In this document: in pieces, positions 10,201 to 47,789 of the stretch
How the letters are laid out: each line of letters begins with the position of its first letter
Position numbering within the stretch: position 1 is the first letter of the stretch
Notes under the pieces: generated by a model
What the model saw: only the letters and a program-made list of their open reading frames with translations
What the model was told of the DNA's origin: nothing
Database searches by the model: none
Translations under genes and position numbers: made by a program
Origin: Amphiscolops sp. MND2022
Lineage: Eukaryota
Assembly: GCA_964187785.1 (NCBI GenBank)
Contig: OZ076409.1
Span: forward strand, 68,946,001 to 69,010,000
DNA length: 64,000 nt
Direction of reading: 5' to 3'

Positions 10201-11600
10201 ACATATTCAATAAATTACTCTCGATATGCAAAAATACGTTCACTGTGCTTCATTGCAGTTATAGGTTGCGACGTTTTAATTGTGAACTATAAGAACACCT
10301 TCAAATTAGATTACATGCATAAAACCAGCCTCATTTTTCATCTATAACCTTTTAACTCCCTTTAACGTGACCTAGACATATGATCATACTTCCATTGGAT
10401 GTTTCCCAATCATTGACGTGATCATAACATGATTTTAAACTAGTTTCCATTTAAGTTTAGTTTCTATGTCGAAATAACATTTTCATAAATTTAATATTAG
10501 CTACTTTCAAAAACTTGTCACGTCATGTTCACTAGTTGTATTGGCAAGCTTGGCAGTTTGACAAGTCTGACGAGATGCTGACGAAGAATTTGGTAAGAAA
10601 TTCAGCTATCTACTGTATTAGTGGTGTAACGCTGATGTCACAATCATAGTGATATTGACTACAGCGGTCACAATTGTTCACACAACAACATGTATTCGTC
10701 TTATTTCACTTTAGTAGCTTTTCAGACATGAATTAAGTTGCCTTTTTAAAATCTCAAATGTAGTTTCTGTGTTAGATCTGTATGTGTGCTTAATCTAAAG
10801 ATGATTATGTCCATAATTTCATTTATATTAACCTATGGTTTCGATTAGAAGACTAGTTTCAATTTAGCTTTCAGGTTGAGAATCTTTACATTGTTTTGGC
10901 GTGACATAAGCGTCGCGGCGGAATTGTGTGAAATCATTTCAATCTATTCAATGTTGGTGTTCATTGTCTTTTTAGATTTTAGTTGAGCGTTCTCCCTAAC
11001 CTCGTTAGCGATTTCGTCCTCAAATGAGGACAGCGATTTTTTTCACAATCAATAAAAAATTACAAAACACAAAAAGCATATAGGAAAACAAAAGGCTGTC
11101 TTTCTTATCAACAATCTAATGGACTATTTGTTGCGAGTGGTTATTTGAGTCAATGTAGTTTGTTTTACGAACCACCGGCAAATAAATAACTGGAAAAATG
11201 AAAGTTTGCAAAAAAATAATTTTCAGAAAAATAGCCTCTTTTCAATAATACAGTAAATGTTGGCTAAGTTACTGTGACACTCTAGTAACAGTGTGCCACT
11301 ATTGAAAACGCATATAGAAGTTTTTTCAATGACGCTCAAGGTAAGGGTTCACCCCAATATATGGCTCCAACTCCCAGCCTTACTAGTGTGCATTTGAAAG
11401 CTCAGGTAAAGGGCTTTCAGGAGTAGAAAAATTTTGCGACTTCTCGGTGTGCTGACGACCCTAAATCACAGTTTATTTGTTAAAGTTTAGGTTTAATAGT
11501 TAAAGTACAATTTCGGGAATCTTGATGCACATCCATGTCCTCTCCCAATCCCTCCCGATTCTTGAGCAACCACAAGCCAGTCCGGGCGCGGACTGTGACA
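4237..11600 (-). mobile_element. Element C: old, decayed Ty3/Gypsy LTR retrotransposon (no RT/IN visible)
   Basis: Diverged direct repeats 4237-5519 and 8906-11600 (tgtta... to ...ggcgcggactgtgaca; the right copy has extra internal sequence). PBS TGGTGACAG on - strand at 8897-8905. Decayed gag between them. Right flank CTCAT matches the left flank once a 4-bp attg slippage is removed. No PPT seen. Confidence 0.65.
7950..8905 (-). pseudogene. gag: Decayed gag of element C
   Basis: Fragments FFQSLLR..ALQ, AKARCDWDALKCDP, FIDKAIYAKM and a broken CCHC knuckle are colinear with the Gags of A and B; many stops and frameshifts. Confidence 0.7.
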
Positions 11601-17600: not shown

Positions 17601-17723
17601 ATATCTGTAATGTAAATATTATATCTTATGTACTTAGATATGGGCAATATGATGTCATATAATAAGGGCCATGGTTGTGAGCAACCCTACGTTACTTGTA
17701 CTTTAATCCCTTCCCCCTTTGAG
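11427..17723. repeat. Tandem triplication of a ~2.1-kb unit (11427-13524, 13525-15624, 15625-17723)
   Basis: Three near-identical copies differing by scattered SNPs and 1-bp indels. Each runs from the outer end of LTR-C to the first 158 bp of LTR-A. Confidence 0.97.
12177..12278. repeat. Perfect 102-bp palindrome (also in units 2 and 3, near 14275 and 16375)
   Basis: agtaacaagttctg...gaaacctata|tataggtttc...cagaacttgttact; 51-bp arms, no spacer. Confidence 0.95.
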
Positions 17724-19807
17724 TGTGAGTTATATATATTTACTTAATACTGAGCGCTCTAGTTCCGGTGTCCGCATAAATGATCTTGCCAGAATCTGGC
17801 CTTGAAAGTGCTATATTCCATAAACATTGGTTTGTCACGACAAGGGAGAGAAGTTTTCCGGTCAGACTGGACCGAGGAATATTGGAAGTAATAGAAAGTA
17901 TAACGTCTACTAACTCCCTGCCTCAGAGTATGTAGTTGTGACAAATTCCATTTAATTCATCACAATTTCATCGTCGAATTTGGTGACGATTTTGACCTGA
18001 TCAGAAATGTCAATTGGATCCATCAGCGGATTCAACGGTGCTTTTAACCAAATTTCATCGCAACCCCATCCTTAAAGTTTGCGAGTGAACAAAACATGGG
18101 ACTTTAAACTGACTTTCATCATAAATCCATCAACGGATTTTATGGGACTTATTCTAGTAAAACTCATCTTTAATTCATCGTGATTATTTCATTTAGTAAT
18201 TCCTGAATGTGCTTCTCATTTCTAAGGAACAGTAGTTCATCCTTTATTCATCACGTTCACTAGTACAGAAGGGAAATGAGAAAGTACATCCTTAATTCAT
18301 CCTAAAAAAGAGTAAAAAAGCTGGTTATCTGAATTGTTTAGTAAACCCATCCTTAATTCATCTTGATTCCGTTTGTGCTGAAAATAGACCATCTTAGCGG
18401 ATGAGTTCATCCTAAACTCATCGCTAGATTGAATTGGCTTAGTATTCGGTGTTTTAACTGGTGAGTTCATCCTAAACTCATCGCCAATTTGTATTGCTTT
18501 GGTATTTGCTGTTTTAATTGACAAGTTCATCCTAAACTCATCACCAAAATTCTCCTGTACTAGAATTAGCGTTTATCGACTGAATTCATCCCGAATTCAT
18601 CGTCATTTGAATCTGTGCTGGAAATTGGCAAGTTATACATGGAGTTCATCCTTTTGTCATCGTCAGTTTGAATTGTGTTGATTTCCGAGCGAGAAAGACT
18701 ACCATTCATCGCATTTTCATCCAGAGCTAAACTAGACTTGGAAATCAGCAAATATTCTTACAGGTTCATCGCATTTCCATCTTCAAGTTTTAAATCATTG
18801 ATTTTGGCGCTAGAATCAGCGGAAAACATCGTTTTCCCATCCCAAAGTGTGCTTTACCTTAAATTTGCTTGAAATTAGTGCGTTATTGAATGATTTGAGT
18901 CCATTTTAGTTGCTATAGAAACCATGATGTTATGTGCAGGCAATTGCGACATTGTAAATTGATGACTAAACACCATTAACACATGTAAATGTACCATGGT
19001 GCGTGGCCACTTTGCGGCAGTTCACAACACTGGTCACGTGACTTACCATTTTAACACCAGCTGGTAACAGCTAATGAGAGAAGGTTGGTAAGAGATTTAG
19101 CGTCTTACCAACCGAAAAGACACGTGAACTGCTGTAATTTGGTCCGCCATTAAATATTACTCAGCCCGAATTGCGACAAGCTACCGACCAGTTGGATATT
19201 TTAACACGCGAAAGTCACAAAACATCTCTATTTCATCTTCAGAAATTAAAGAGCTTAAACTGAGTAATTTCTTGGTACATCTACGACTGCGATAAAAATT
19301 GGATGAACTTCTCCTGAATAACTTGCTAGTTTTCCTTCTCCTTATCTAACTGCTTACTTATTTGTACAACTTTTTCTAAAACATCTCAGTTCAGATTAGT
19401 GAATTTGAGATCGAATATTCAGTTAAATCAGCAAAATACATTGAAACAATATCTCAGATAATCCAGTCTTCACTCATAATTCTTTTCTCTCGATTACATG
19501 AACCCAGATCAAGGTACCGAACTTAGAAGCGGTAGAGTCATACATTCCTCGTCAGGAACATCCTCTCCAATAGATCCAGACATGGCCCAGTCGTCCGCCA
19601 ATGACTCTGACAACAATGAAACTTCAGATATCTCGTCCCAGTTGTCTGAAATAAGAGAGAACTATGAAAAGAAGATAAATGAGTTGCAAAGCGAATTTAG
19701 TCAACTGAAGAACTTATTAATGGCAGTTATTAGTAAAAATGACGAAAATAACTTACCTTCGACATCGCAAAGTTCTTCAAAGCCGACCCACAGAGTGGGG
19801 TTATACA
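17566..19807 (+). repeat. 5' LTR of element A (2242 bp)
   Basis: Starts TGTCATG after the TSD, ends TTATACA before the TGG PBS; matches 34617-36860. Confidence 0.95.
17958..18841 (+). promoter_or_regulatory. Phased array of CATC-N7-CATC motifs in LTR-A (15 copies)
   Basis: Motif starts 17958, 18056, 18117, 18165, 18238, 18287, 18348, 18408, 18468, 18528, 18587, 18647, 18707, 18767, 18827; ~60-bp period from 18287; regulatory role is inferred. Confidence 0.8.
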
Positions 19808-20982
19808 TGGTGACAGGAGTTACAGAAACCCGCTCCACCCGCCCGACATCCAGCTTCACAAACTTCAGGCGATACCAGGAAGACGACTCGGACGAAGAAG
19901 GTGAATCAACTCCTAGAAGCAATGAGGAACGACTACTCAATGCAATCGAGACGATCCCCCAACGAATCAAAAGCACCACCACCAACACGAAACTACTACA
20001 GACACACGTCCCAAATTTCAGAGGCCAAAAAGACAAATTCGTGGAATTCGAGCACCTTCTCCTCAACCACCTTAGCCCGCTCGCCAACAAAATCACCGAA
20101 GAGAACAAACTCCACTTCTTTCAAAGCCTTTTGAGAGATGATGCAATAGAGTACTGGCAATCCATCCAGATAACGCCACTAACAACGCTGAAAGATGTGC
20201 TCGACCTCTTCAGGAAAGAATTCGCGAAAGAGGACCTTAAAGAAGTAGCTCGATACAAATGGGATCAAGCCCGTTACGATCCCACCACAAAAACATTCAG
20301 CGACTTCCTCAAAAACTTGAAAAAGATTGCGAAACAAGCATTTGGGGAAGAAGCGGATAAAATCATCAAAATGTTCTTGTTCGGTAAACTCCCAGTCGAA
20401 ATACAACAAGAACTTACGATGGCCAATAAGGAGGAGAGCTCACCAGAAGAAATCAAGACATACTTGATGAGAAAGTACCAGTACCAACAGTACGTTGCGC
20501 CACCAACGGCAATTCAACCATTTAACGCGGTCACCTCCTCGGTCGCAACGACCAACACAACGATTAAACCAGCAACAACGACGACAACGCAACCGACAGA
20601 ACGAAAACGATTTGAGGGACAATGCTTCTACTGCGTAAAAACAGGTCACCGCAAAACGGAATGTCGCGCCCGACAACGTGACGAAGCAAACGGCATTAAG
20701 AAAGAAGATGCAATTCCGATGAAGAAAGCAACTGACCCAGACAAACCGAAGTACAATCCCAAGCTGGTTTGCCAGATTTGTGGATACACCGGCCACTCTG
20801 CAAGAGATTGCAGACGACGCATTCCCAAGGAAAGCAGCTCTGCATATGGAAAGATTCCATACACAACGAATTCACAGGACGACAACAAGGCTAGACGACA
20901 AGATTTAAAACGACAGCAAAAGCCGATGAATCCAATGCAAGCAATTACTGAGGACGACGAACAACTAAGCTACTCTGATTAA
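19498..20982 (+). CDS. gag: Gag of element A (starts inside the 5' LTR; two zinc knuckles)
   Basis: 494-aa ORF; CFYCVKTGHRKTEC and CQICGYTGHSARDC; capsid-like region homologous to the Gag of B. Confidence 0.92.
   Translation: MNPDQGTELRSGRVIHSSSGTSSPIDPDMAQSSANDSDNNETSDISSQLSEIRENYEKKINELQSEFSQLKNLLMAVISKNDENNLPSTSQSSSKPTHRVGLYMVTGVTETRSTRPTSSFTNFRRYQEDDSDEEGESTPRSNEERLLNAIETIPQRIKSTTTNTKLLQTHVPNFRGQKDKFVEFEHLLLNHLSPLANKITEENKLHFFQSLLRDDAIEYWQSIQITPLTTLKDVLDLFRKEFAKEDLKEVARYKWDQARYDPTTKTFSDFLKNLKKIAKQAFGEEADKIIKMFLFGKLPVEIQQELTMANKEESSPEEIKTYLMRKYQYQQYVAPPTAIQPFNAVTSSVATTNTTIKPATTTTTQPTERKRFEGQCFYCVKTGHRKTECRARQRDEANGIKKEDAIPMKKATDPDKPKYNPKLVCQICGYTGHSARDCRRRIPKESSSAYGKIPYTTNSQDDNKARRQDLKRQQKPMNPMQAITEDDEQLSYSD
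19808..19821 (+). other. Primer binding site of element A
   Basis: TGGTGACAGGAGTT directly after the LTR-terminal CA; the same TGGTGACAG is in element C; resembles tRNA-Leu-type PBS (TGGTGTCAGGAGT), tRNA identity not verified. Confidence 0.8.
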
Positions 20983-20999
20983 GACATTAACCAGGGTTT

Positions 21000-23900
21000 T
21001 TGATTCAGCCACGATTTCCGCCCGCTAGAAATACAACGCGCGACAAACGACTTTCGACTCAACCGACTACACACAACCGTCCAATGAAGAAATGGCAGCC
21101 TTCACTGGACAAACGACCAAAAGCTGACGACGTCTATCAGCGAAGACTTTCCAACGATGAAAAAGCGATGGGAAATGCACGTCAACGCAACGGCAGCCGC
21201 TTTTCTTCACTCGCTGAAATCAACGATGAACAAACGATGAACTGGCACCAAAACACCATGAGGCAGGTGGACGATGCCAAAGAGATGGACACCAACCATC
21301 TAAACGACGTTTCGACTTCATACTCAACAATTGACAAACGGCTTAGTATTAAAAAACATGCAAAATATAGTAGTATTAACATTTCAAAAGCTAACAAACA
21401 TGCAACTAAAACAGAAATTCACGTTCTTAGTCCCACTTTACATTTAAACAAGAAAGATAAAATGCTGTACGTCCCTCTTCAGTTTGATAAATACGAAAAC
21501 CATGCACTGTTAGACACAGGCGCAATTCAAAGCGCAATGTCTGAAGCAGAATTGCGAAAAATAACAACGGCTCATCCAGAAGCCATCCTTCAAGAACTCC
21601 CCCTCCGAATTTCAAAATTCAAATAGCAAACGGGAACTTAGTCCCAGTGCGTAAGCAAGTCTTACTTAGATTTTACGTTGCTGGAAAAGTCTTTGAAGAA
21701 ACGTTCCTAATCCTTCCAACAATGGGCACAATTTTAATTGGAATGTCATTCTTTGAAAAGTACTCAGTCAACTTAGACATAAAAAACCACCTTGTCCACT
21801 TCCCTAATCACATGATGTCCATGCAAGTTAGACAGCAAAAGAACAACAGATTCAAAACTGGTTTAATTGATTTGTGTTCCAGTACTAGAACAGTGATCCC
21901 TCCTCTCCATCAAGTGATGATACAGGTCCACAGTGACGCGGACATCTCACTTACAACTGGTACAGTTGAGGGCTCACCTGGATTCATGCGAAAGACGTGT
22001 TTGCTTGTTTCCCCAGCTTTGGTTGACCTAGACGAGGGCAAGACGACAATCCAGGTCACCAACCCCAACAACCACACGTTCACACTTGATGCCAACACCA
22101 CTCTGGCACACTTTCGCATACCGACACCACATCAGGCGGCAAACATCACACCCATGCCAGTCGAACACTTGAACCTGATCACCAAGTACCCAGATGAGTC
22201 GGAAGCAGTGATCAACCAACTGTTCGTGAACCCTGAAGTGAAGTCAACTAAGTGGTACCCAACTCCCGAGACGTGCAGTGAGCCAGACAAACTCAACGCA
22301 ATTGAGCGACGAATCTATGATGAGATTCTGGCACTGCGAGAGCTCGAGAAGCTTGACCCGTCCCAATCCGATGAACAACGGATGAACTTCATGAAGAACT
22401 TCAACTGGGACGACTCGCTTCTTACTCCGTCTCAACGGTTACAGGTAGAGGAGTTGCTGGTAAAGTACAACTCCATTTTTGCTAGACATCGTTTTGATAT
22501 TGGCATGAACACTGATTTTAAAGTTAAGCTAACACCCCAACATGAAGAACCTGTTTATTCACAAAGTCTCCCTACTCCGACAAATTTGAAGGACGATTTG
22601 CTCGTGGAGTTACCTTTAATGCAAGAGTACGGGATCATAACTACTTTGCCTCATAGCAAATACTCATCTCCGATATTTGCTCAACGTAATCCTAATGGTA
22701 AATTGAGGATTTTAGTTGACTTGAGAAGAATAAACCACTTGATCAAAAATGATTACGGTGAACACAACCATCCCGTAACAACAATTGCTGACGCTGCCCA
22801 ACACATGGCCGGGAAAAAGTATTTCTGTAAACTTGATTGTTCCCAGGCCTACCATTGCATTCCAATGGCCGATGAGCAGTCTGTCCAACTGTTATCGTTT
22901 AATTTTGGTTCTAGAACTTTTGCCTTTTTACGTCTAGCCCAAGGTCTTAACCGTTCTTTGTCAGCATTCACAAGTGTAGTCCGTGAGTATTTGGACCCCT
23001 TGGTCAAAGCGGACCTGTGCTCAATATGTTGATGACATTGGAATTGCAGCACACACCCCTGACGAACTGATTAATAACCTTGAACTTGTTTTTCAGCAGA
23101 TGAACAAAACCGGTCTCAAACTTAGCATGAGTAAATGTGAATTTGGACAAAAGCAAATTGAGTACTTGGGAAAAACCATTTCTAGCACCGGTATTGCTCC
23201 CATTGAGAAACGAGTAACTGACTATCTGACCAAATTGAAACCCCCAACTCAGTGAAAGCGTTGCAACGTTATCTTGGTTTTGTAAACTTTTACAGGTCTT
23301 ATATTCCCCGCCTAGCTGATAAAACTTGTTGTTTACAGGAGTTGATCAAGAAGGACGTCCCTTTCAAACTGAATCAACAACATAAAGATGCTATTTTTGA
23401 AATCAATGAAAGTTTGTTAAAAGCAACAAAAGTGTCCCTGAAATTGCCATTACCTGATAAACAATTGGTAATCATGTGTGACGCCAGCGAACACGCTGCC
23501 GGCTATGTTTTGTTAATTGAGGATTATGCTGACCCGTCAGTCAAACAAACATACGCCCCTGTTGCATTTGGCTCTAAGAAATTTCAGGGCGGCCAGATGT
23601 CTCTAACAATGTATGCCAAAGAGTTTTTAGCTATGCACTTTGCCTTCGATGAATTTGGCCACATTTTGTGGGGTGCGAAAAAACCCATCATTGTTATGAC
23701 TGACAATAAGGCCTTGACTAGATTTTTTCAGGCGAAGCATATCCCGCCTTCACTTTGGAATTTTTGCGATCAAACCCTTCAGTTCAATTTTTTATTAGCA
23801 CATGTTCCAGGAGTTGAAAATCCCGCAGCCGATTACTTATCTCGGCTTGAGATTAGACCTGAAGACCGTGTACATTTAAAATTGACTGATACTATTCCAA

Positions 23901-26078
23901 TTCACAGAATCGAGATCGACATCGCCTCCCGTACACCAAAACAGGAGGAAGACGAGCCTGATTACTTTCCCACGAGCGAACCGCTCAGATGCAAACGCCA
24001 GAAGGATGTCAAAGAGATGAAATTGGCAACTGGCACTGACGTGGCTCATGACGATGGGAAAGGGATGAAGTTCACCAACTGTGAGAGAACAGCGGCCTCA
24101 GATGACTTCGCGACTGACAACCATCTGACGTACCGCCTCACAGACGTGGACGAGCCGATTCAACTCTCGCAATTCATCCGTAAAGTATCACTATCACACC
24201 CGGTAATGAGTCAGGTTAGCCCCGCTGAGGGGATCGATCTAATTCAGGTCCAGAAAAATAACTGGGTTATTCAAAAAATGATTAGATTTTTAGAAGGTAC
24301 TGAAATTTTGCAACACCCAGTTAATATGCAAGATCAGTTTTTTCAAAATTGCACAAAAATCGAAAACGCCTACAAGTTGTAAACGGTGTCTTGTACAGAC
24401 AGTTTTTTGATCACACGGGACTGGAGTCTCACAAGCAGTTAGTTGTTCCTGAAGACTGTATTTTGAAAATAATTAGGACTCTACATAACAGCCCGGTACA
24501 AGGACACCCTGGTTTAAAGAAAATGTTGTACGAACTTCGTAAAAGATATTACTCTCCTAACTTAGCCTGTAAAGTTCAAAAAGTCCTTGACGGATGTGAA
24601 AACTGAATGAAATCTAAAAGTGTAAGAGAAACGCAACTACGTCCACCGTTACAAAAAATCTACGACCCGTGCGACGGACCAGAAGACCTGTTGGAAATAG
24701 ACATCGTTGGTCCACTCCCGGCGTCGAACGGTTTTACGCACATTCTGACGCCTGTTGATGTTTTTTCACGCTACTTGTTCGCCGTTCCGCTGAAGAGACC
24801 TGATACACATTCCGTAGTCAGAGGATTACTGTCGATCTTCACGAAACACGCATATGTGCCCAAGCACATTCTGACGGACAAGGGCACGGCGTTTACGGCT
24901 GAACTTCTGTCTGAAATCGCGAGAGCGGCTGATATTCACATCTCCCATGCCACGATAAAGCACGCACAGACAATAGGCATGGTGGAGAGAACGCACGCGA
25001 AATTGAAAAAGATCCTTAAAATTAGTGTAAACGCAGACCGACCACAATGGGACCGCTATGTCGACATAGCAATCATGGCCCATAACACAACGTATCACGA
25101 TTCACTGAAATGTTCACCAACTGAAATTTTCCACGGAAGAACACCATACAACCCACTAGATCTGCAATTCCGAAACGCAAACAAACCGGCTGAAACAAAG
25201 TGCAAGGACGTGAACGAAAGTGCAAGGACGTGAACGAGACTATCTAGATAACATCATTTCCGCCTATCATAAGTACAAAACGTACTATGATAGAAAAGCA
25301 CGAGCACAGCCACTGAAGGTGAACGAATTTGTGTTCCTACTAAATCCTAAGTACGACTCTCAGAGAAGCAAAGAAGAGTTTAAAACTTTCCATTGGAAAG
25401 GACCGTACAAGGTGATGAAAGTGCTATCCGAAGCAACTACATCATCCGCAAAGTAGGCACACACCAAACTCAGTGCGTACATCGCATGCGACTGAGATTG
25501 TTTAAACCGGAATTTCCGATTGATGACATCAACGTGTCCAAACATCTCTACCCAGACACTGAAAGGGTTGAAGACACGGACATTTTCGACTCGAATATTC
25601 CGACGACCGACGAAGTAGATCAGAATGAGAATGACAATCTAGATCAAGACTTAGTCGAAGAAGAGCCTTCAGAAGAAATAATTCCACAGATACAAGAACG
25701 ACACAGTCCACAAGTAATTCCACCAGAAATAACCACGAGAATAGAATATCAGCAAGTAGAAACTGACCACAACAACTTTAAACCACCTACAGTTAGATTT
25801 GGAACGCAAGAGGAAATTATTCTACCGCCCCCCCCCGCGATGAGAGTAGGATAAGAGTACCTCTGAGAGACGAACAACACGAAAATCAGTCACAACAGAC
25901 AAACACGCAAACTGAAGATGAGGAAAGGATGAGTTCTAGACCGTCTAGAAACAATCAGAGTAGGTACAAGTTACGCGAGAACCCTACACCGAAAAAATAT
26001 GCTGACTTCCTTATTCATGAGATTACATCAGCCAGAAACTCTCTGAGAAAGACCAACAAAGTAAACGTAACGAGTTAG
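21000..26078 (+). pseudogene. pol: pol of element A (PR, RT, RNase H, IN), disrupted
   Basis: LLDTGA protease; QYVDDIG RT; MCDASEHAAG and VMTDNKAL RNase H; integrase H..GHPG, DIVGPLP, TDKGTAF, GMVERTH; several frameshifts and a stop at 24604. Confidence 0.95.
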
Positions 26079-28685
26079 CCAAGTAAAACAACATTTCAAA
26101 ACACACGATGTGTTAAAGATGAAAAATTCACAAAAACGAGCCAATTACATGCAATTTCAATTTAAAAAGAACATGAAGATGTAAAATGGATGAAAAGCTA
26201 CTAAAAATCACATGAAAAACGCATAAAAACAAAATACGATGTAAAACGGATGAAAAACGACCAAAAACCCAGAAAAAAAACAACACACAAAAATTTGAGA
26301 TGAAAAAAGGATGAAATCACATGAAAATTTATCTCAGACACCCGAGAGATGAAAAGGTGATGAACTCAGTCAAAAATTCGACCAATCAACATGCAATATT
26401 TACTAGCGATGCATTTGAGATGGAAAATGCCATCAGAATGCGAGCGCACTCACGTTCATGCTATCATAATACTCTAGCTCGACTAGAGGATGAAATAGCG
26501 ATGAACTCGATCCAATTATTCAGAAATTACTTGAAATCAATTAACGATTAACGAGATGAATTTGTGATGGACACTACCATCAAATCGTGACCGAATTTAT
26601 CGTTAGCCTGACACAATACTCTAGCTTCGCTGGAGGATGTCAAAACGATGAATTTAGTCTAAATGGAAATTCGAAAATATTAAATGACTTACGATAACCT
26701 CCTTGTGATGGGAAACACCATCCACACAAAGTCACAATAAATCAGCTAATTCTCAAACAACATGTAACTCCACGAAACGATAAAAAACCGCCGACCTTAT
26801 TTCGAATCACGCAAATAGAATTATGACTCACAAAAACGAAAATGATCAATACATGTAAGGTTCAAAGACCTGCCAAATCAATGACGTCACGAAAGAAATT
26901 GACAATTCCAAACTACATGCAATACAAATGAGCAACACACGGAAATATACATGTACCGTTTAAAAATGAACGAGATAATATATGCAATTCACACCAAAGC
27001 CATCCAAACCTAGACGAATAAAAATGAAACAAACAATCGAAAATACATGAAGCCTACTAACTAACATGCAAAATATAAGAACTGACGAAACACCCACAAA
27101 ACGAATAAAGGAGTGAGCACCCCCCAGTAAACATCAGTTCATAACAAGCAAAATACCCCTATCGAAAAGCCAAAAACATTCCTTCGTGCTGGCTGGCATT
27201 TCTCTGAAAAGAGTGCTGGTTAGTTGAGGCGGGGAGCTCACAACCATATTCGGATGAAGCTTGCTGCGTTGGTTATCCAGCGGCTAGTGGATTCTCAGTT
27301 AGTTTTGTAGGGGCTTTGTGACGACAAAGCCCTGTCCAAATGAACGAAAATAAAAACACCAAATTAAAATACATGAAACTAACACCGAACATATAACAAC
27401 ATGTCGATAATGGGGCAACCCATTTAAAGGAATACATTATGAAAACACGCAAACATGAAACCACACAATATCACAAAACTTAATAATTCGAAACATGCAA
27501 AGCCGTAGATGTCAATCACCTTGATTGATCAGATTAAATGTCAAATGGACAAACCCACTTCGACGACTGATGACAAACAACCGACCGTAAAAAATAACAT
27601 GAAAACTATATATAGCTCAAAACTGAGAGATTTCATTCATCTGAATGGAGCGGAACAGCTCCACTCACCCAGCTTTGGACTGGTACCTCAAGTACCTTGC
27701 ACGCCTACGGGGTTCCAATACCATTGCTGAGTGAACATCTCTTCGACTACCACGCAAGCGGCAGTCACAAGAGTCCGAAAAATGATTCATGCAATAATGT
27801 TCAAACTATGACAAATCCGAAACGCAACGAAAATGAGTATAACACATGTACACTGAATTTCATGCAATTTCGACAAACTAACAAACGATCAACACCATAT
27901 GACACTAAAATACATGAAGAAAACACTCCCAAATTACCGGAAAATTGATAAAATACACTCATCTACCATGAAAAATGCAACTCTCGATTACGTTATAGTA
28001 AAATAAACACGAAAAACACGCAAGATAAATATTTTCCAAAATTACGATGAAAAGAAGATGAACTATGCAGCAAAATGAGCAAAATTCGACAAGTCAAAAC
28101 TTGCGATGCAAAAACGATGAACTACAGCAAATAACTCGCCAAAATGATAAAATGAAAACGCAAGATGAAAAAACGATGAACTTTGCAGAAAAACACATAA
28201 AACAACATGCAATGATTTCCACACAACGAAAGATGTAAAAAAGATGAGAAAACAGTTTTCGCGACGTCGCTCGGTCGACTGAGGAAAACAAGATGAAAAT
28301 GAGATGAGACATCACAATGAAACACTGATGAATTAGCCACACCTACACGAGATGTAACAACGATGAACACCGTAATAAAAGTTATCTAAAAGGCGCGAAA
28401 ATAAAAAGCGATGAGAAAGCGATGAAGACTATCCGCAATTCTAACCTATCCCTATCCTCACCTAAAAATGTCTCAAGAGAAAAACAAATTTCGGGTGCCA
28501 AATACTAAATATGTATATATCTACGCTACCGAACTTTCCGACGTAGCATCTGTTGTTCTCCCCCCCTGTAAATTCGTTCAATTGGTCACCCATTTGCTAG
28601 ATACAATACTATAACATACAGTAATATAAAATAACATGAAAGATACAAACAATTTCAAAAAATAATAATAAACAGAAAGTCAATT

Positions 28686-31600
28686 CTAAACCTCAGGGCT
28701 AGCTGCGCGCTCTCCAGCAGCTGTAAATCCGATCGCATCGTACAACGACTGACGGTATTCTTCATCCGCGACTACTCCTACATCATCCCACAGCATCTCT
28801 TCTGTCAAATCGGCTAAAGCTGTGAAATGACCAATTGACTCCGTAACCTCCTCAGGTAACGGCCCACTCACAGTTTCGAACTGTCTGATGGAATGCGTCC
28901 TCAAATAACTTAGAATACTTGAGCAAACACTTGTCGTGACATCACTGCTCAACCCTCCCACGCTGACGCAACTGATACCTGCTGGGAATACAGGTGTCTC
29001 ACCCAGACACATCAAGAAACGGAAGAAGCGTTGACACGATGAACTCTCACATGCCCGCAAAATGTCCACTGCTGAACTTGCACTGCTTACGGACATATCA
29101 ACTGCATTCTGCCTGAAGTTGGTCACGAATGAGACGAAGCTCCCATCAATTTGTCTCTTCTCAGCGAGTCCTATCCTCCCCAGATCCAGGAGCAATCCAG
29201 TAAATTGTTCAGCTTCATTTCGCAACACGTCAATTTCACCACGCAACAAAAGAGCAGGACAACCCTCACTCAAATGGTATGTCACTTCTTCTTTCATCCC
29301 GGAAGCAGCTAGAATGTCTTCAACCACTACAAACATGAAGCTTTGCACCATCGCCAAGTGTTCATCAATTACGGCAGCTTCTGCAACTTGCCCTAAGTAG
29401 GGACCAAATTCATCCCTCATGGTTCGCAACTTGGCATCTGACACAGTCAAATTGTCCACGTCCACTTCCAAGCAAGCCCGCACCTCGGTCACACTAGGCA
29501 GGTCATCGTCGTCTATCAGCTTGACTGAGATTGCGTGCACAAAACACGCACTCTCGTAGGCCCAATGAAAACTTCTCAATGGACAACTGCTGAAGCTCCA
29601 ACGATACGAATCGACGACTGAAAACAACAAAAATTAATGCAAAAAAAACCATAGTCAAGTCACACGCTCTCTACTCGATTCCCGAACCAAATATCTTTTA
29701 TTAAATTAAGACACTGTAAATAACGAAACGACATGGACCAAGAAAACAAAAAACATACATACGTGCACGAAAGACACTAGCTAAGGCCTGCAAACGGAAA
29801 GGGATAGCACGATCCCCACACAGCACAAAGTCCAAAGATTCAATGATGCCGGATCCACTAGGCACTCTCAACAGATTCGAGATCTCTGCCCAATTCTCAG
29901 ACAACTCAGCCAACACGTCCGGTACGTCCCAGAGGGTTACCTCTCCATCTAACACGGACTATAACAAACAAGAATTTATAAAAATAAAAAATTCCCAAAT
30001 TACACACGATACAACCACGAAAAGCATCACCCCCCCAAAAAAAATCGACACATCAGCATCAGTGAAAAATAATCGAAAAATAGCAAATAGTTACCTGCAA
30101 GAGCTTTGGACAAGTTAAAAAGATTGGGTCCTGGACGAATTCTTTTAGTCTTGATTGCAAATGGTTCAATATCGTATGTACATCTGTCCCGCCCATCACA
30201 CGAATGCTCGCATCCACCAGACGCTTGTTTAGCTCGGTAAGTTTTAACGACACAAGTGAGACTGTCCTGGGTCCAGAGCGGCTGACCAACACTCTTTCCA
30301 GCCCAGACAACAGTCGACAATTGAGGCCAACAGGTGTCAATTGCCCCACAGCGCAACACAACATATTGACAGCCCACGAGACCACTCGCTGCTCCCACTC
30401 TTGTCCATAAGCAAATGAAAAGACCACATAGTTCGCAGGCCCTTCCGAGGTACATACATTCAGCGTGCCCACCACTCTGTCCGCCACTAATGTGACACCG
30501 AAACTGCTGTATTCTGTTTCGGACCACGAACCAATTACTCGTCTCATCACAAACGGCCAGAGTCCAAGAAGAACAACGCTCTAAAACAAGATCATACATT
30601 CATCCTACAATCATCGTTTTACATTCTCATATAGTTACCTACTCACCACTCACTTAACACACACCCCAACTTCGTAATTTTTTTAAACAAAAATAAAAAA
30701 TTTTTTTCATACAAATACGCCAAAATTATCGGAAGTTTCACATGTACCATACAAATATCAATACATGCAACATGTAATTATTTCATGCATCCGGAAAAGA
30801 TTCATAATAACCAGAACGTCGGATTCTCGACAAGTCGCGCCAAACATGACAGCATGCTGCGAATTGGAGGCAACCATCAGGTCCCAAAGATGTCGCACAC
30901 TTGCAAAATTACAGTCCCGATAGACCGCATCAATCACTAGACACACGAACAACCGAAAACTGTCAGTGTGGTCGTCATCCTCTGCGACTAGCCTTGTGCC
31001 CCACACTGAACCATCACTCGCATCGATCTGCAGTGCCTCCAGAACAGTCACATCTGGACACGTCTCAATCAACGGCACTGACTCACCAATCAATGCGGCA
31101 CCACATACGTCTGCCTCGGCTTGGGACATCAGTGTCCCATCTCGTCTGCGCAGCGGTAGGCCCCTTCGCAATCGCGTCAGACAGTCCAGCCGGTGGTGTC
31201 TGACTCCCCGGCAGTGTTCAAAGAAGGTTGTTATACCGCGGCTACCGATCTTGACATCTTGCCTGCAGAGTAGACATCTCGCGTACGAATCGCGCGTCAG
31301 GTGATCCTTCGGGAAACCGAGCGCCAGTCCACAATAAGCGTGGTCAAACCACGCTGACTTGAGAATTTTCCTTCTTGAAATCAAAAGAACAACGAAAAAT
31401 GTTAACCCCATCCTCTACACATCCTAGAATACCGAAAAATAGAAAATCAACCGAACATTTCAAAAAAAAAACAAAAAACCTCACCCGGAGTGATGAAAAC
31501 ATGATGTAAAATAATATTTTCATTGGAAATATAAGCGAAAAACGAAGAAAAAACGGAAAGATGAAAAAGAGATGTGTTTGCAAGCCACCAGGACAGAAAA

Positions 31601-33480
31601 TTGAAACTTTAAAAGACGAAAGCCTCGAACGATGAAAAAGAGATGTATAGAACAACTTTGAACCAAAATTGAGATAATTTAGAACGAAAATAACTTAACG
31701 ATGAAAAAGAGATGTAAACTGAAAAGAAAACGACAAAAATGGCTAAAGACCGAGCAAGGAAAATTTTAAGGATGTAAAAGAGATGGAGAGTTATAAAAAA
31801 TGATCAGAAAAGAAAAACGCTATACTCAAGACTTTTAACGATGAGAAAGTGATGGAAAATGAAAAAACGGCAGAAAATCATATGAAAAACAGAAAAACGA
31901 TGGAAAATAGATGGAAAGGAAGAAAGACGTGAAAACACTGGTGAAAGTGGAAATGAAAAGAAATGAATAAAAGTTACCGATCAAATACTTCACAGAGTTA
32001 AAGATGTTTAGGTAACCTGGCAAGCGAGACGCAATGGGCTCGTCGTCGGAATCCACGAGACTGGGTCCCATGGGAGATGTCTCAGCAGACACAGGAACCA
32101 GACCAGGAACAGCACCTTCTGGAGCAGGCTCTGCAGACAGAGGATCACCAGCAGGGACATTCTCGGCTGCCTCTAGTAGGGTATCAGTGCTGTCGGCTGA
32201 CGGCACGTCAGACTGCTCGACGTCAGCCTCCAAAGTTCCAGAGACGCTAGCAGCTGGCGAAGAAGGAGCAACCGGAAGGGTGTCCACGGGAGGATCATAA
32301 ACTGTGGAAGTCTCGCCAGTTTCCACAACGGCCTGAATGGACTGATCAGCAACAGCCACGCAGGCATCGACCGCCACATCCACAAGAGTGACGACGGCAC
32401 TGACTCCTGTCTCTACGGTGATACGAACAGGAGGAGGAGGACTTTGAGTTGTTGATTCACGGTCCAGAAATCGCTGAAAGCTTGGCGAGAGCACAGACAC
32501 TGGGGCACGTGCCACAGGGGAGCTGATCGCGCCCAGAGACAAGTCCTGGAGGAACGAGGACATCTCCAGGGAAGAAGGCCCTCCTTGGGTAGCAGCGTCA
32601 ACCTGTGTTGCACCAAAGTCGCTCGTTCCTATACCCACGGAGTACGTAGTAGGGCGAGGCCTTGGGGCGTGGATAGGAGTCGGGCCTGAAAAAAGAAAAA
32701 CAGAAATCAGACGACGACAGATGATGAAGAGAGTGCGCGTACGCCGCGCGAAGAAAGAAAAACAGGAAACGAAGTCACCAAAATTTCACCCTCAAAATGG
32801 AATTCGGAAACGGATTAGCCACGAAAGGACAGTGAATGTCCATGACGCATCCCAAATTCATCTTAAAAAAAAAGAATTTTATAGGTAATCGACCGTGAAG
32901 GGCACTACATGCAGATGAGATGTTTACATCGGAATTACATCGGAGTGTCTGGACGATACCTTAGTACAGGCGGAAATGTGAAAGGGAGTCAACTCACTAT
33001 ACTGCTGGATGCTATCTCGTAGCATGTCCCGCATGTGGCGATCGTACCACTCGAAGGTGATGCTACCGAGGGAGGCATGCCAAGGATAGTGATCTAAACT
33101 TCAAACGGAAAGAGTCAACGTCTGAAGGGACCAGAGATGAGAAATGAAGAGATTGTGGACTGAATTGAAGATCTGGAAGGACAGAACTTACACTGCGGAA
33201 GATACGGGACATTGGGAGCCTGACCAAACGGTTGGTCAGGTTGAAACTGAAGTTCAGGAGCTGCTGCCTGAGCTTCGGGAGCCTCTTGGGGCGGCACGTT
33301 CTGCAAAGTGGTCAGCTCAGAGACGACACCGACAGATTGAACTGAGTCCGCTAAAAAGCCAAGACGCGTTTTCAGCACCTAATTGTTCCCCGACCCGTTT
33401 GTGAAAGAAAAGAAAATGGTGCACTTACTTTCTGTAGCTTCGGTCTCTGGAAGAGAATGAACGAAATGGATGTCAGACAT
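28686..33480 (-). CDS. Antisense, spliced accessory gene of element A (~1,066 aa; low-complexity N-terminus, zinc finger, hAT-transposase-like body)
   Basis: Exons 33480-33429, 33350-33192, 33093-32998, 32685-32017, 31423-30812, 30580-30095, 29958-29763, 29617-28686. All introns GT-AG with matching phases; one extra nt near 31380 must be assumed. Finger CLLC-x16-H-x5-H; homologous to 53408-57716. Confidence 0.8.
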
Positions 33481-34616
33481 CACTGTAAATTGCAAAACAA
33501 TCTGAAAAGGAACGGAAGAGAGTGAGGAAGGAACGAAATCGAAGAATCTGGTGACAAGAATTTGATCAGTAATTAAATGGCCTGATCAACCATGATTGCG
33601 GGATACAAATTCGCGAAAAATCTCAAAGAGCGCGGATGCAGCTTGAGTGCCAGGACAAACCAAATACTTGAAATTCAGAAGATGGAAAATCGATGAAAAA
33701 CTCCGATTTCAATGACTGCCTACACTTTTCTTCCTAAATCAAGCAACTTAACAATTTTCTCTGAAAATGAATCACCCCCCAGAATTTGACTACAAAAGCT
33801 TCAAGTATTTGATTTTGATGACAGCTGCCAGTCTCAGATCAATACCGATGAAGTTGAGCGGAAACGCGCAGAGGAAATCGTGGCGATTTTCAAACCGACT
33901 TGACGGAAGATGATTCAAGGATGAGAATATTTGTTGACAACCGGTTGGATTTCTTTCAGTTCAGAAAATTCAGTTTTCAACCAATCAGAATTAGCAGTGA
34001 TTGCTATGGCAACAGGCCATCTCTTTCTCATCGCTGAGATTTCAGACAGCGGAAGTAGCTTCAACGGTTACTATGGCAACGACTCATCTCTTTCTCATCA
34101 CGGAAGCTGATAGCAAAGCAACGGCGCCAGTCGTCTGCTAAATCAACATCGATGCCTCGCTGTGTAAACAATTCATCGTTCATTCATCCCCGACTCGCTG
34201 CCAATTTGTCAATGAAGCTAGTCGAATTGTTTATTCAGTGTAGGCGTTTTGGAGGGAAACTTTTCTCCGAGAAATCAGCTTCTACCAAAAATAACCAGCC
34301 GAAACTCCCATCAAAAGCATGACAACCAATAAAATGCAGATCAGCGGACATTCGATGGACCAAGAACTAGAGTTGCCGCGTCGATAAAATTTAACCGAAA
34401 TCACCCAGAATGAAACCAGACATGACGATTGCCGAAAGTCCTCTTCTCAGAGAAGATTTGCATAGGACGGAACAAACGAAGGACATGCCAATTCAGAACT
34501 AACGAAGGACATTTTCTCCCCAACCAAACCAAGGAAGCAGTCGAAGCCAACGCTGAGACAACCATTCTCTGCACATTTGGCCCCTGCACTCTCAATCCAA
34601 ATCCCGACCCGGGGAG

Positions 34617-36860
34617 TGTCATGCCAGCATGATGGAAATGTAATCTACTAAATATCTGTAATGTAAATATTATGTCTTATGTACTTAGATATGGGCAATA
34701 TGATGTCATATAATAAGGGCCATGGTTGTGAGCAACCCTACGTTACTTGTACTTTAATCCCTTCCCCCTTTGAGTGTGAGTTATATATATTTACTTAATA
34801 CTGAGCGCTCTAGTTCCGGTGTCCGCATAAATGATCTTGCCAGAATCTGGCCTTGAAAGTGCTATATTCCATAAATATTGGTTTGTCACGACAAGGGAGA
34901 GAAGTTTTCCGGTCAGACTGGACCGAGGAATATTGGAAGTAATGGAAAGTATAACTTCTACTAACTCCCTGCCTCAGAGTATGTAGTTGTTACAAATTCC
35001 ATTAAACTCATCACAATTTCATCGTCGAATTTGGTGACGATTTTGACCTGATCAGAAATGTCAATTGGATCCATCTGCGGATTCAACGGTGCTTTTAACC
35101 AAAGTTCATCGCAATCCCATCCTTAAAGTTTGCGAGTGAACAAAACATGGGACTTTAAACTGACTTTCATCATAAATCCATCAACGGATTTTATGGGACT
35201 TATTCTAGTAAAACTCATCTTTAATTCATCGTGATTATTTCATTTAGTAATTCCTGAATGTGCTTCTCATTTCTAAGGAACAGTAGTTCATCCTTTATTC
35301 ATCACATTCACTAGTACAGAAGGGAAATGAGAAAGTACATCCTTAATTCATCCTAAAAAAGAGTGAAAGTGCTGGTTATCTGATTTGTTTAGTAAACCCA
35401 TCCTTAATTCATCTTGATTCCGTTTGTGCTGAAAATAGACCATCTTAGCGGATGAGTTCATCCTAAACTCATCGCTAGATTGAATTGGCTTAGTATTCGG
35501 TGTTTTAACTGGTGAGTTCATCCTAAACTCATCGCCAATTTGTATTGCTTTGGTATTTGCTGTTTTAATTGACAAGTTCATCCTAAACTCATCACCAAAA
35601 TTCTCCTGTACTAGAATTAGCGTTTATCGACTGAATTCATCCCGAATTCATCGTCATTTGAATCTGTGCTAGAAATTGGCAAGTTATACATGGAGTTCAT
35701 CCTTTTGTCATCGTCAGTTTGAATTGTGTTGATTTCCGAGCGAGAAAGACTACCATTCATCGCATTTTCATCCAGAGCTAAACTAGACTTGGAAATCAGC
35801 AAATATTCTTACAGGTTCATCGCATTTCCATCTTCAAGTTTTAAATCATTGATTTTGGCGCTAGAATTAGCGGAAAACATCGTTTTCCCATCCCAAAGTG
35901 TGCTTTACCTTAAATTTGCTTGAAATTAGTGCGTTATTGAATGATTTGAGTCCATTTTAGTTGCTATAGAAACCATGATGTTATGTGCAGGCAATTGCGA
36001 CATTGTAAATTGATGACTAAACACCATTAACACATGTAAATGTACCATGGTGCGTGGCCACTTTGCGGCAGTTCACAACACTGGTCACGTGACTTACCAT
36101 TTTAACACCAGCTGGTAACAGCCAATGAGAGAAGGTTGGTAAGAGATTTAGCGTCTTACCAACCGAAAAGACACGTGAACTGCTGTAATTTGGTCCGCCA
36201 TTAAATATTACTCAGCCCGAATTGCGACAAGCTACCGACCAGTTGGATATTTTAACACGCGAAAGTCACAAAACACATCTGTATTTCATCTTCAGAAATT
36301 AAAGAGCTTAAACTGAGTAATTTCTTGGTACATCTACGACTGCGATAAAAATTGGATGAACTTCTCCTGAATAACTTGCTAGTTTTCCTTCTCCTTATCT
36401 AACTGCTTACTTATTTGTACGACTTTTTCTAAAACATCTCAGTTCAGATTAGTGAATTTGAGATCGAATATTCAGTTAAATCAGCAAAATACATTGAAAC
36501 AATATCTCAGATAATCCAGTCTTCACTCATAATTCTTTTCTCTCGAATACATGAACCCAGATCAAGGTACCGAACTTAGAAGCGGTAGAGTCATACATTC
36601 CTCGTCAGGAACATCCTCTCCAATAGATCCAGACATGGCTCAGTCGTCCGCCAATGACTCTGACAACAATGAAACTTCAGATATCTCGTCCCAGTTGTCT
36701 GAAATAAGAGAGAACTATGAGAAGAAGATAAATGAGTTACAAAGCGAATTTAGTCAACTGAAGAACTTATTAATGGCAGTTATTAGTAAAAATGACGAAA
36801 ATAACTTACCTTCGACATCGCAAAGTTCTTCAAAGCCGACCCACAGAGTGGGGTTAGACA
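34617..36860 (+). repeat. 3' LTR of element A (2244 bp)
   Basis: Preceded by GGGGAG (34611-34616), ends TTAGACA followed by TSD CCGAT; contains a copy of the Gag N-terminus from 36551. Confidence 0.95.
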
Positions 36861-37920
36861 CCGATGATCATCAAACTTCATTCCAGCAGTACTGAATAGC
36901 CGTTCGATGACATTGGTTGTGGCAGGTATCCGGGCAAGTTCTCCGGAGAATTTTTAAAATAAATATTGCATCATTGAGTACTCGATCCGCAAAAGAGCCC
37001 GAATCAACTGCAGAAACTTTTTCACTGGTCCTAAAATCGTCCAAAATTTTCAAATCATCAGAGTCAAGTCACGCTCCAGAAATAATGTTCTTTATTGCGT
37101 TCTCAACTTTTTTCGAAAGTATCGGAAGTACAATAGTAACATTACAACCGATGTTGTCAAAGGTGTCAGGGTGCTCCCCAGGTAAGGCGTCAAAAAAGTT
37201 AAGATCGTCCCAGAGATTTGTGCTATCTTCCTCCAAGTTCATAGTAACATTTTGAAGTTTTTTCATAGATTAATGCTTTGAGGTCACTTGCAAGTAATGG
37301 GAAGCGTTGGACACGAACATCGCCACTTCTGAGTCGCTGGAATCCAAAAAAGAAGTATATCAAAGTATCTTCGAACTGTCGTGTAAAAAGAACACCAGAT
37401 TGTTTCGACTAGGAGTACAGTACTCAAATGAGTGCACTTTCTCAATTTTGGACCATGCATGGGTCCCCTCAGCTTTTTCTTCTGCATTTGCTCCATCTGA
37501 AGCACATTCTAGTACCTGGATTGAACGTTCTTGACGCATAAGTTTAAACGATGACTTCGCACCTATCCATGATTTGTCCATTTTTGGCAAGGGCTTTGTT
37601 TCGGTTTTCATTGTCAGCAATTTTAAAAAAATTTCCACTGATTCGTCAAAGAGACCGTTTGTTTCCCTGATAAGTTCCACATGGCTACCTGGATCGAGAT
37701 TCTTCTTCTCAACAGAAAGTGCTAAGAAATTTTGGACCCCGGAAGTAGGCAGCAATAGCTATAAAGTGCGTTGAAAACGATGACCTTCCGTTAATCATGA
37801 TACCGAAATTCTCGGGACGATGCTTGGCAATTTGTCCCACTTCTCTCGTCATTTCATCCAAGTATTTAACGAGAGTCTTGGTGGTAGTGTGCTGTAGTTT
37901 AATGTACATCCTGACCAGAA
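36861..37920 (-). pseudogene. Decayed hAT transposase 1, interrupted by element A (C-terminal tail continues leftward from 17565)
   Basis: TKTLVKYL..NFGIMING..STHFIAI, and dimerisation-domain motif IPATTNVIERLFSTAGMKFDDHR, which continues in frame as QILTPVHL across the TSD. Confidence 0.85.
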
Positions 37921-47120: not shown

Positions 47121-47261
47121 TAAAATGATAATGATGTCCATTTGCAACCACTTGGTCGAGTGAAGGTTGTCTAGAAAGTGCTACAATTGTCAATTATGCA
47201 GCACTTTCTAGACAACCTTCACTCGACCAAGTGGTTGCAAATGGACATTATTATCATTTTA
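47121..47261. repeat. 141-bp hairpin / mini-MITE
   Basis: 62-bp inverted arms (one mismatch) around a 17-bp spacer. Confidence 0.85.
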
Positions 47262-47461
47262 ACCATGATTAATCACAGCACTGTGACGACGAACTTTTGC
47301 TCTTCAAATGGTAATTTTCTGCGAGACTTGTATTTTTCCTCCTTTCAGCTCGAAGTGAAGAATTCGAAGTTAAGAGAAACGAGAAACATCGAATACCACC
47401 AGCCAATTCTTAATAATTCTGTCCAATTCAGCATGCTCCCTCATTCATACTGATCAAAATA

Positions 47462-47645: not shown

Positions 47646-47789
47646 TAGGTATTTTGAATGTCATTAACCAAATGCATTTTTTTCTGTTTTTTTTTAGTCG
47701 GCGCATTTTGGTAGAAAATGTGCCAGACTCTTACAGTGGGTAGATTTTTCTAGACGCGTAAGGTCCACTTTTTTGTTCATTTGTTCAAC

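Follow-up and report, generated by a model that had tools for sequence, protein, structure and literature searches.

A hAT-like antisense gene and family-specific paired DNA words in Ty3/gypsy retrotransposons: a candidate self-recognition system

The 64,000-nucleotide stretch of DNA analyzed here (the window) contains a Ty3/gypsy LTR retrotransposon of 19.3 kb, element A, in which the motif GATG-N7-GATG is present 74 times and is under selection. Element A also carries an antisense, intron-split gene under purifying selection, and the same gene recurs in sister families of this genome, where its finger has diverged and the paired word is another one. Taken together, the conservation of the motif and of the gene and the different word that accompanies each different finger strongly, if indirectly, support the idea that the motifs are sites for the element's own protein. 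We hold with moderate confidence that this gene encodes a transposase-derived, family-specific DNA-binding protein that acts together with its own sites, most likely to keep the element transcribed.

Element A was assigned to Ty3/gypsy by its TG...CA LTRs, target duplication, primer-binding site, gag, and a pol in PR-RT-RH-IN order, the protease match coming from pol of the neighboring element B. The two LTRs of element A were 98.75% identical, and a search for inverted repeats of at least 40 nt found none within the element. The features are as follows, with the introns of the antisense gene placed from GT/AG ends and its exon limits read by eye.

17561 to 17565, forward strand: 5-bp target-site duplication CCGAT (right copy at 36861 to 36865)
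17566 to 19807, forward strand: 5' LTR, TG...CA, containing the first ~100 gag codons
17958 to 18841, reverse strand: 5' LTR array of 15 GATG-N7-GATG motifs, 48 to 98 bp apart, mostly 59 to 61
19223 to 19237: 16th motif of the 5' LTR
19498 to 20982, forward strand: gag with CCHC knuckle and a single motif (20707)
19808 to 19825, forward strand: primer-binding site, begins TGG
20991 to 25854, forward strand: pol, RT-RNase H-integrase order as in Ty3/gypsy, in several frames in element A's copy
21156, 21225, 21273, 21573, 22370, 24005, 24053: motifs in pol
25917 to 26650, forward strand: post-pol array of 10 motifs (25917 plus nine in 26107 to 26650)
28046 to 28424, forward strand: array of 7 motifs immediately downstream of the antisense gene stop
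28686 to 29618, reverse strand: antisense gene, last exon, helical region, homologous to the last exon of element B
~29760 to 29960: antisense gene, probable further short exon
30086 to 30580, reverse strand: antisense gene, RNase H-like exon without the conserved Asp
30601, 32848, 32927: other motifs in predicted introns of the antisense gene
30815 to 31381, reverse strand: antisense gene, exon with BED-type C2H2 finger and a helical, possibly dimerizing segment; motif at 31127
31409 to 31913: 8 motifs arrayed within the predicted intron that precedes the finger exon
32016 to 33480, reverse strand: antisense gene, predicted 5' exons with an acidic, Ser/Pro-rich, low-complexity N-terminal region (ORF 31835 to 32785)
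33681 to 34188: five motifs upstream of the antisense gene (33681, 33909, 34018, 34085, 34174)
34617 to 36860, forward strand: 3' LTR, following a short purine tract and carrying the 15+1 motifs of the 5' LTR
35009 to 35892 (15 motifs) and 36276: motifs of the 3' LTR
50747, 51134, 51350, 51407, 53014, 53332, 58210, 62924: GGCC-N5-CGG in element B
53561 to 57716, forward strand: homologous antisense gene of element B, which runs from 50785 onward with pol on the reverse strand

The 74 copies in element A were divided into 16 in each LTR and 42 internal, with 73 inside 17958 to 35892; the window outside element A contained only 2, and none were found between 50000 and 64000, the region of element B. 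The original prediction of approximately 66 copies, 15 per LTR and about 36 internal, recognized the abundance of the motif and the 15 copies of each LTR array but was too low in total. All 13 of its single sites and its three array counts (9, 7, and 7) were correct, and the copies at 19223, 36276, 20707, 21573, 22370, 31127, 31409, and 33681 had been missed. When spacers of k=3 to 12 were scanned, element A gave 74 copies at k=7 versus 0 to 2 at each other k, the sharp peak that had been expected, and the ~265 kb outside element A in a 284-kb stretch gave 13 at k=7 versus 5 to 22 at other spacings. Chance levels under Markov models of element A were 0.7 (order 1) and 2.3 (order 4), with a maximum of 5 in 30 runs. 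Across element A and 7 related loci, 83 of 185 neighbor distances were 58 to 62 bp, and 78 of the 102 remaining ended in 8, 9, 0, or 1, the sites behind these 185 distances being partly homologous and hence not independent. The arrays had been said to be phased at 60 to 70 bp; multiples of approximately 10 bp describe the spacing better. Genome-wide, 15,622 motif pairs were 59 to 61 bp apart, compared to 6 in the reversed control, and 474 pairs were 54 to 56 bp apart; a genome-wide control at k=8 was set aside because (GAT)n microsatellites swamp it.

In 288 aligned sites from 8 subfamily loci, the bases of the half-sites were 94 to 98% conserved versus ~73% for the flanks, and there were 14 one-mismatch variants versus 58 perfect copies. 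The motif was not restricted to non-coding DNA: the pol ORF of an A-clade copy contained 7, compared to 0.7 in codon shuffles. The words of two other clades were likewise enriched in pol, those of clade C numbering 8 to 10 versus 1.6 to 2.1 in codon shuffles and those of clade F 8 to 9 versus 1.5 to 1.7, levels reached by 0 of 300 shuffles in each case, and B-type words were barely enriched (1 versus 0.0 to 0.2). Nor was the motif strictly confined to the family as had been proposed, since another dispersed, unrelated-looking repeat with 11-bp CCATCGATGG units also matched it. An A-type copy without pol and the antisense gene (L093) was considered as a non-autonomous family and rejected, with only partial relatives among 40 scored candidates.

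The antisense gene was a fixed part of many LTR elements, and counts of candidate finger loci were 2,461 and about 8,000. The dN/dS of the finger exon was approximately 0.12 (compared to loci L062 and L063), and the RNase H-like exon gave a dN of 0.21 to 0.27 with synonymous sites saturated. The finger retained a C-x2-C...H-x4/5-H pattern; its profile had a sole, weak match among PDB sequences, the ZBED2 BED finger (E 1.2), Pfam zf-BED weakly matched 3 of 26 finger members (best E 0.021), and its ESM neighbors were the hAT families FAM200/ZBED5/GTF2IRD2 (0.86). No Pfam family was assigned to the antisense exons, TRP28 having no match either, and an ESM search with the middle exon was uninformative. 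A model of the middle exon of a C-family homologue, folded alone, had RNase H topology and matched Hermes at Foldseek ranks 1 to 7 (E 0.016 to 0.052) and at VIA rank 1 (Z 6.1, rmsd 3.6, 103 aligned, Hermes 150 to 265), and a model of the last exon of B aligned to Hermes 364 to 609 (Z 5.4, rmsd 9.9, 183 aligned, rank 6), the longest alignment among the matches listed; the models are of B and C homologues rather than of A, and all of the structure matches fall short of the customary cutoffs (Foldseek E>0.001, Z<8). The last exon had no Foldseek match, and its similarity between families was weak (A-C E 3e-4, A-B E 0.014). The three parts of the protein that match Hermes or BED proteins (finger, RNase H-like core, C-terminal half) were collinear with Hermes, and from the agreement of these individually weak matches we infer that the protein is hAT-derived. 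Catalysis appears to have been lost: in a search for the catalytic Asp/DDE, neither 23 middle exons nor 67 last exons had an acidic column that was invariant or nearly so, the placement relative to the Hermes catalytic sites being based in part on predicted strands. The N-terminal region is a candidate effector or activation part. Protein searches returned no longer, full-length annotated forms (weak evidence, with the homologues found being assembly ORFs), and no relatives were found in metagenome contigs.

The words of the sister families were GGCC-N5-CGG (B), ACG-N8-ACG (C), and GAC-N5-GTC (D), and each was counted in 25 stretches of 10 kb. GATG-N7-GATG occurred 28 to 40 times in all 9 A-clade stretches versus 0 to 2 in the 16 others, ACG-N8-ACG 18 to 40 times in 10 of 10 C-clade stretches versus 0 to 5 elsewhere, GGCC-N5-CGG 9 to 12 times in 5 of 5 B-clade stretches versus 0 to 3 elsewhere, and GAC-N5-GTC 16 times in the D stretch. 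The same pairing of finger and word was present in 4 of 4 additional loci and in 10 of the 16 loci that an independent query returned; L078, which an A-type copy interrupts, and L084, whose finger lies outside the stretch, were uninformative. An LTR pair picked solely for an array of GACG-N7-GACG proved to carry the same antisense gene, in a new subclade, and a related gene-less LTR element of 4.9 kb had 27 to 29 motifs and LTRs that were 99 to 100% identical. The word of clade F was four-part. Clade G had no clear word in any of the first 4 loci, and one whole element gave a weak one (GAC-N8-GAC, 16 versus 5.4); the signal at G5 was rejected as a clade G word because it arises from a neighboring element. 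One clade C locus (L057) also had 10 D-type words, and a B locus (L114) had 6 GAC-N8-GAC versus 1.6. Within clades C and B, the putative recognition segment varied and the word was constant. RT and finger clades agreed in all 25 elements having both, in an RT tree that leaves out L053 and L106 (no usable RT) and a quick version of the finger tree.

These observations could be explained if a large Ty3/gypsy clade acquired a hAT DNA transposase that became an accessory gene, antisense and with introns, and that would have lost its enzyme sites and retained the BED finger and scaffold. The protein of the element would bind the dyads, probably as a dimer or larger oligomer that contacts two 4-bp half-sites one helical turn apart, and dyads separated by ~10n bp would allow several units to load on one DNA face. 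With its own finger and its own dyad, each family's protein would mark only that family, and gene-less derivatives would be marked in trans. By occupying the LTR, the antisense promoter, and the element body, the protein would most likely keep the element transcribed, either activating it or shielding it from silencing by host chromatin, and would feed back positively on its own gene. On a more ambitious claim we are evenly balanced: that a domesticated transposase serves as a self-recognition factor, with at least five orthogonal protein-motif pairs in one genome spanning direct 11-bp dyads, inverted dyads, and the four-part word of clade F, with words reaching even into pol codons and with gene-less elements served in trans. 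If true, this would make the system a class I counterpart of VANC that does not depend on DNA methylation, and a natural library of BED-finger specificities.

Other readings of the arrays were weighed. They could be decayed tandem repeats of ~60 bp with no function, or could act at the RNA level, which we regard as very improbable. Part of the LTR array is a recognizable 60-bp tandem repeat, indicating that local duplication helped to build it, but selective conservation of exactly eight bases with few near-matches largely refutes decay, dispersed copies lie in pol codons, and the opposite orientation of the motif in the LTR and the body argues against an RNA signal. It is unlikely, in our judgment, that host factors (transcription factors or insulators) bind the dyads, one per family to suit a cell niche, with the antisense gene doing something else and co-varying only by descent. 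Such factors would fit the coincidence of RT, finger, and motif clades, the 11-bp dyads of the gene-less element and the other repeat, and the variable recognition segment; at least five would be needed, however, each reading short half-sites approximately one turn apart and tolerating sites inside pol. The words are also unrelated exactly where the finger drops to 44 to 53% identity between families whose RT is 82 to 87% identical, two nearby gypsy-type elements without the antisense gene (H258 and J0) had no such dyad, and the shape of the word fits reading by a BED finger as described in part of PMC10368747. With RT and finger clades coinciding and no swap between them, a finger that sets the motif and a family that inherits both are inseparable.

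The element's own protein might instead bind the dyads and compact, pair, or escort the cDNA or integrated copy, through hAT-like synapsis, nuclear import, or protection from nuclease or autointegration, or it might repress its own family and so limit host damage; we consider such roles rather unlikely. Retention of the whole transposase scaffold rather than the finger alone speaks for them, as do sites along the full length including pol, beyond the needs of a promoter, and the synaptic complex that Hermes builds on phased repeats (PMC10368747, in part). The densest arrays of A, however, surround the antisense gene and, within the LTR, precede the start of gag, and the acidic, low-complexity N-terminal exons look activator-like. 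Gene-less derivatives that keep their sites are compatible with activating and non-activating roles alike.

If the activating reading, with its family-specific, transposase-derived protein, is true, it would explain the coexistence of many families whose RT is 82 to 99% identical and that have hundreds to thousands of copies. It would also be a case of one transposon class domesticating the transposase of another, and would supply a set of BED fingers with predicted targets. For five or more families, both a candidate protein and a precise target matched to the family are available.

Plant VANDAL DNA transposons are an established case of sequence-specific counter-silencing. The region analyzed here had a CpG o/e of 0.93, and LTR pairs differed by 20 CpG transitions at 814 CpG sites compared to 90 other transitions at 4122 non-CpG C/G sites, which suggests little CpG methylation in the region; without CpG depletion or CpG-biased LTR mutation, VANC-type demethylation is unlikely. 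The originally predicted analogy to VANC holds in its logic only, and the protein looks more like a hAT transposase lacking catalytic residues than like VANC. According to parts of PMC5735166, VANC is likewise an element-encoded accessory protein, its short motifs likewise accumulate in non-coding regions and introns, partly via tandem duplication, and likewise differ by family, and gene-less elements can carry them. The VANDAL host is a Mutator-like DNA transposon, whereas element A is an LTR element with RT and integrase, and VANC resembles MAIN (PMC13547354, in part), from which the antisense protein was set apart by its hAT resemblance rather than by direct alignment. The motifs of element A are spaced dyads that include coding DNA, there is no sign of CpG methylation to remove, and binding is inferred.

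In Hermes and other hAT transposases, a BED finger is followed by an RNase H-like core and then a helical C-terminal half, the order that the weakly matching parts of the antisense protein appear to share. Hermes BED domains bind a 4-bp word followed by A/T-rich DNA, cooperatively and with exact phasing (PMC10368747, in part), an arrangement like that of the element A dyads. The antisense protein differs from hAT transposases in lacking the conserved catalytic Asp, and element A, with its LTRs and 5-bp duplication, differs from a hAT transposon in having no terminal inverted repeats (at least 40 nt searched) or 8-bp duplication. ZBED, FAM200, and GTF2IRD2 were domesticated by the host; the antisense gene would have been domesticated by a retrotransposon, with sites over 14 to 19 kb.

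Foamy virus Tas (Bel1) has few response elements, whereas element A has dozens of phased dyads with family-by-family divergence. Parts of PMC8670036 describe Tas as an element-encoded DNA-binding protein with a second promoter in the 3' half and response elements at the LTR and that promoter, an arrangement similar to that of element A; Tas is sense-encoded and no hAT relation is claimed in those parts, in contrast to the antisense, hAT-like gene here.

The roles of extra antisense ORFs in LTR elements are described as largely unknown in parts of PMC11963269 and PMC7264820. The plant elements Retand, Grande, and RIRE2 likewise have a conserved antisense ORF between pol and the 3' LTR, with nearby tandem arrays and a proposed DNA-binding regulatory role (PMC11963269 and PMC7264820, in part). 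Their TRP28-domain ORFs are a different protein family from the antisense gene, which had no TRP28 match in Pfam, and no cognate motif is identified for them in the parts of PMC11963269 and PMC7264820 cited, whereas element A has a candidate one. In literature listings, with most subscription papers outside their coverage, we found no account of an LTR element whose antisense gene derives from a hAT transposase, and nothing on elements of the A type. The self-tag system of element A is best read as one that would work like VANC or foamy virus Tas while being a member of neither.

Element A, the 19.3-kb LTR retrotransposon bearing the GATG-N7-GATG copies, has a PBS and is flanked by a CCGAT target duplication. 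Its gag, RT, RNase H, and integrase follow the Ty3/gypsy order, and pol is broken across several frames in the copy in the window.

Features of elements A and B and of a noncoding element at three other loci (L131 to L133, local coordinates)
17566-19807 and 34617-36860: LTRs of element A, which share 98.75% identity and have TG...CA termini
Between pol and the 3' LTR of element A: antisense gene, several exons with predicted splice sites
51873-52598, minus strand: short acidic ORF of the neighboring element B; similar positions in L073, L031, and L136
L131 1773-6638, L132 1623-6372, and L133 1831 onward: 4.9-kb noncoding LTR element with 1.56-kb near-identical LTRs

The gag start (first ~100 codons, 19498-19807) lies inside the LTR, as in elements B and C and at L136-L137, and in all of these the gag frame crosses the LTR end and PBS, so that the 3' LTR holds a gag-start copy. 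Three tandem 2.1-kb units (11425-17723, 99% alike) extend into the first ~160 bp of the 5' LTR and contain one perfect ~100-bp palindrome apiece (12177-12278, 14275-14376, and 16377-16474); they are explained either by recent duplication at this site or by an assembly artifact. The short acidic ORF, in gag-pol sense beside the 3' LTR of B-, C-, and H-type elements, has a possible C-x2-C and no Pfam match. Elsewhere in the window, minus-strand fragments at 38603-39449 resembled ordinary hAT transposase by eye, carrying what we take to be its CxxH and TRW-like motifs, and had no Pfam match; two adjacent MITE/foldback-like elements (44759-46270 and 46226-49301) had long terminal inverted repeats of GTGTTGAGTTTTCTT units.

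The motif excess described in the original prediction was real: 73 copies of GATG-N7-GATG were counted in 17958-35892, 74 in all of element A, and 2 in the remaining window, compared to 0.7 to 2.3 expected in element A from Markov models, and each other spacer gave 0 to 2 copies. The spacer was A/T rich, often with A directly after each half-site. The minus strand bore the LTR copies and the plus strand most of the internal arrays. Arrays occupied the part of the LTR that precedes the gag start, the regions following pol and the antisense stop, predicted introns of the antisense gene, and sequence upstream of its start. The proposed phasing of 60 to 70 bp held only partly, since 59 to 61 bp was among the common distances but peaks also fell at 48 to 49, 68 to 73, 79 to 81, and 119; the best-fitting period was 10.0. 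Genome-wide, 15,622 motif pairs were 59 to 61 bp apart versus 6 in the control, and 474 were 54 to 56 bp apart; a k=8 spacer control was swamped by microsatellites. Confinement of the motif to the A family was not strict, as another dispersed repeat also carries GATG at an 11-bp period. This repeat, of 11-bp CCATCGATGG units (L135 2159-2265), matches GATG-N7-GATG without similarity to element A and is possibly a hitchhiker or an unrelated transposon end.

Other families in this genome carried other paired half-sites, or words. Element B has the same antisense gene, with a C2H2 (putative BED-type) finger 23% identical to that of A, and the word GGCC-N5-CGG; just outside the window, elements C and D carry ACG-N8-ACG (43 versus 6.4 expected) and GAC-N5-GTC (25 versus 3.6 expected). 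Throughout 25 10-kb stretches the word tracked the finger clade (A, 9/9; C, 10/10; B, 5/5; D, 1/1), one C locus holding 10 D-type words besides, and 4/4 more loci agreed. Sixteen extra loci, retrieved with a distant homologue as the query, comprised 10 clear cases, including the clade F word TGCCGTC-N4-TGACC-N4-GTC, 2 uninformative loci, and 4 clade G loci without a clear word. One whole G element had GAC-N8-GAC only (16 versus 5.4); another seeming G signal was traced to a neighboring element. RT-RNase H of D, F, and G was 82 to 87% identical to that of B, and the finger exon 44 to 53%. Words also exceeded codon shuffles within pol: 8 to 10 per 3 kb versus 1.6 to 2.1 for C, 8 to 9 versus 1.5 to 1.7 for F, and 7 versus 0.7 for the A clade (0/300 each), with a weaker signal in D (1/3 loci at 0/300) and a marginal one in B. 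In a prospective test, an LTR pair chosen solely for its GACG-N7-GACG array (pairs 53 to 55 bp apart genome-wide, 1,067 versus 5 in the control) contained the same antisense gene, from a new C-related subclade (finger 41% identical to C), and 57 ACG-N8-ACG. The 4.9-kb element, which resembles this one patchwise (75 to 84%), has no internal ORF of 120 amino acids, LTRs 99 to 100% identical in 3/3 copies read, and 27 to 29 GACG-N7-GACG motifs, which a trans-acting factor would predict. The copy at L095 (4771-6215) matches A at 90 to 96% identity in its LTR and pol and at 70% in the finger region; it is a swap that arose naturally inside the A clade, with one motif shared by both parents.

The finger exon gave dN of 0.12 to 0.21 against dS of at least 1 in 5/6 comparisons and 0.059 against 0.178 in the closest. 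Assemblies contained 462 homologues at E up to 0.001. No Pfam family scored for the protein. Four hAT leads, each weak, agreed among themselves: the sole finger-profile match was the ZBED2 BED finger (E 1.2); ESM neighbors were the FAM200/ZBED5/GTF2IRD2 hAT families (0.86); a middle-exon model (family C homologue, pLDDT 71) showed RNase H topology, and Hermes took Foldseek ranks 1 to 7 (E 0.016 to 0.052) and the top VIA place (Z 6.1, Hermes 150-265); and a last-exon model (family B homologue, pLDDT 81), without a Foldseek match, gave an alignment with Hermes 364-609 over 183 residues at rank 6 (Z 5.4, rmsd 9.9). Finger, middle, and last exon pieces were collinear with Hermes. Because neither exon alignment (middle or last) had a conserved acidic column, the protein looks, on these models, like a disabled hAT transposase. 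According to PMC10368747, Hermes BED fingers bind cooperatively and in strict phase to a 4-bp word and then A/T-rich DNA, the same shape as GATG-N7-GATG.

Duplication contributed to the LTR array, part of which is a 60-bp tandem repeat; that the dyads are neutral repeats is still highly improbable. Across 288 site comparisons, from alignments of A to 8 subfamily loci, identity was 94 to 98% at the eight half-site bases, 77 to 91% in the spacer, and 62 to 85% in the flanks, and one LTR plus the body held 58 perfect copies and only 14 with one mismatch. Drift cannot account for this pattern; the motif is under selection and is part of a wider family-by-family code.

We judge it quite probable that the dyads are bound, in one way or another, by the element's own protein. 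In the version that we modestly favor, the antisense protein would bind the dyads of its family in oligomeric form, sustain transcription of the element, and feed back on the promoter of its own gene; that the same binding serves cDNA handling or self-repression seems rather unlikely. RT and finger clades match in 25/25 elements with both, so the word/finger pairing could have arisen by common descent and the words be read by host factors. The presumed base-reading segment of the finger, constant in A and F but variable in B and C, and the separate repeat with GATG at an 11-bp period also weigh against binding by the element's own protein. We consider the host-factor explanation unlikely.

A literature search at the listing level returned no such system. 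The likeness to VANC of VANDAL transposons drawn originally holds for the way of working (PMC5735166) but not for the host element or the hAT-like protein. With CpG o/e at 0.93 and no CpG-biased transitions between LTR pairs, a VANC-like protein would find little methylation to remove, and any anti-silencing would presumably act at the histone or small-RNA level. Since its host is Ty3/gypsy and its protein looks hAT derived, the system is not of the VANC, Tas, or Retand type; it shares its layout with foamy-virus Tas (PMC8670036) and the position of its antisense gene with the plant Retand antisense ORFs.
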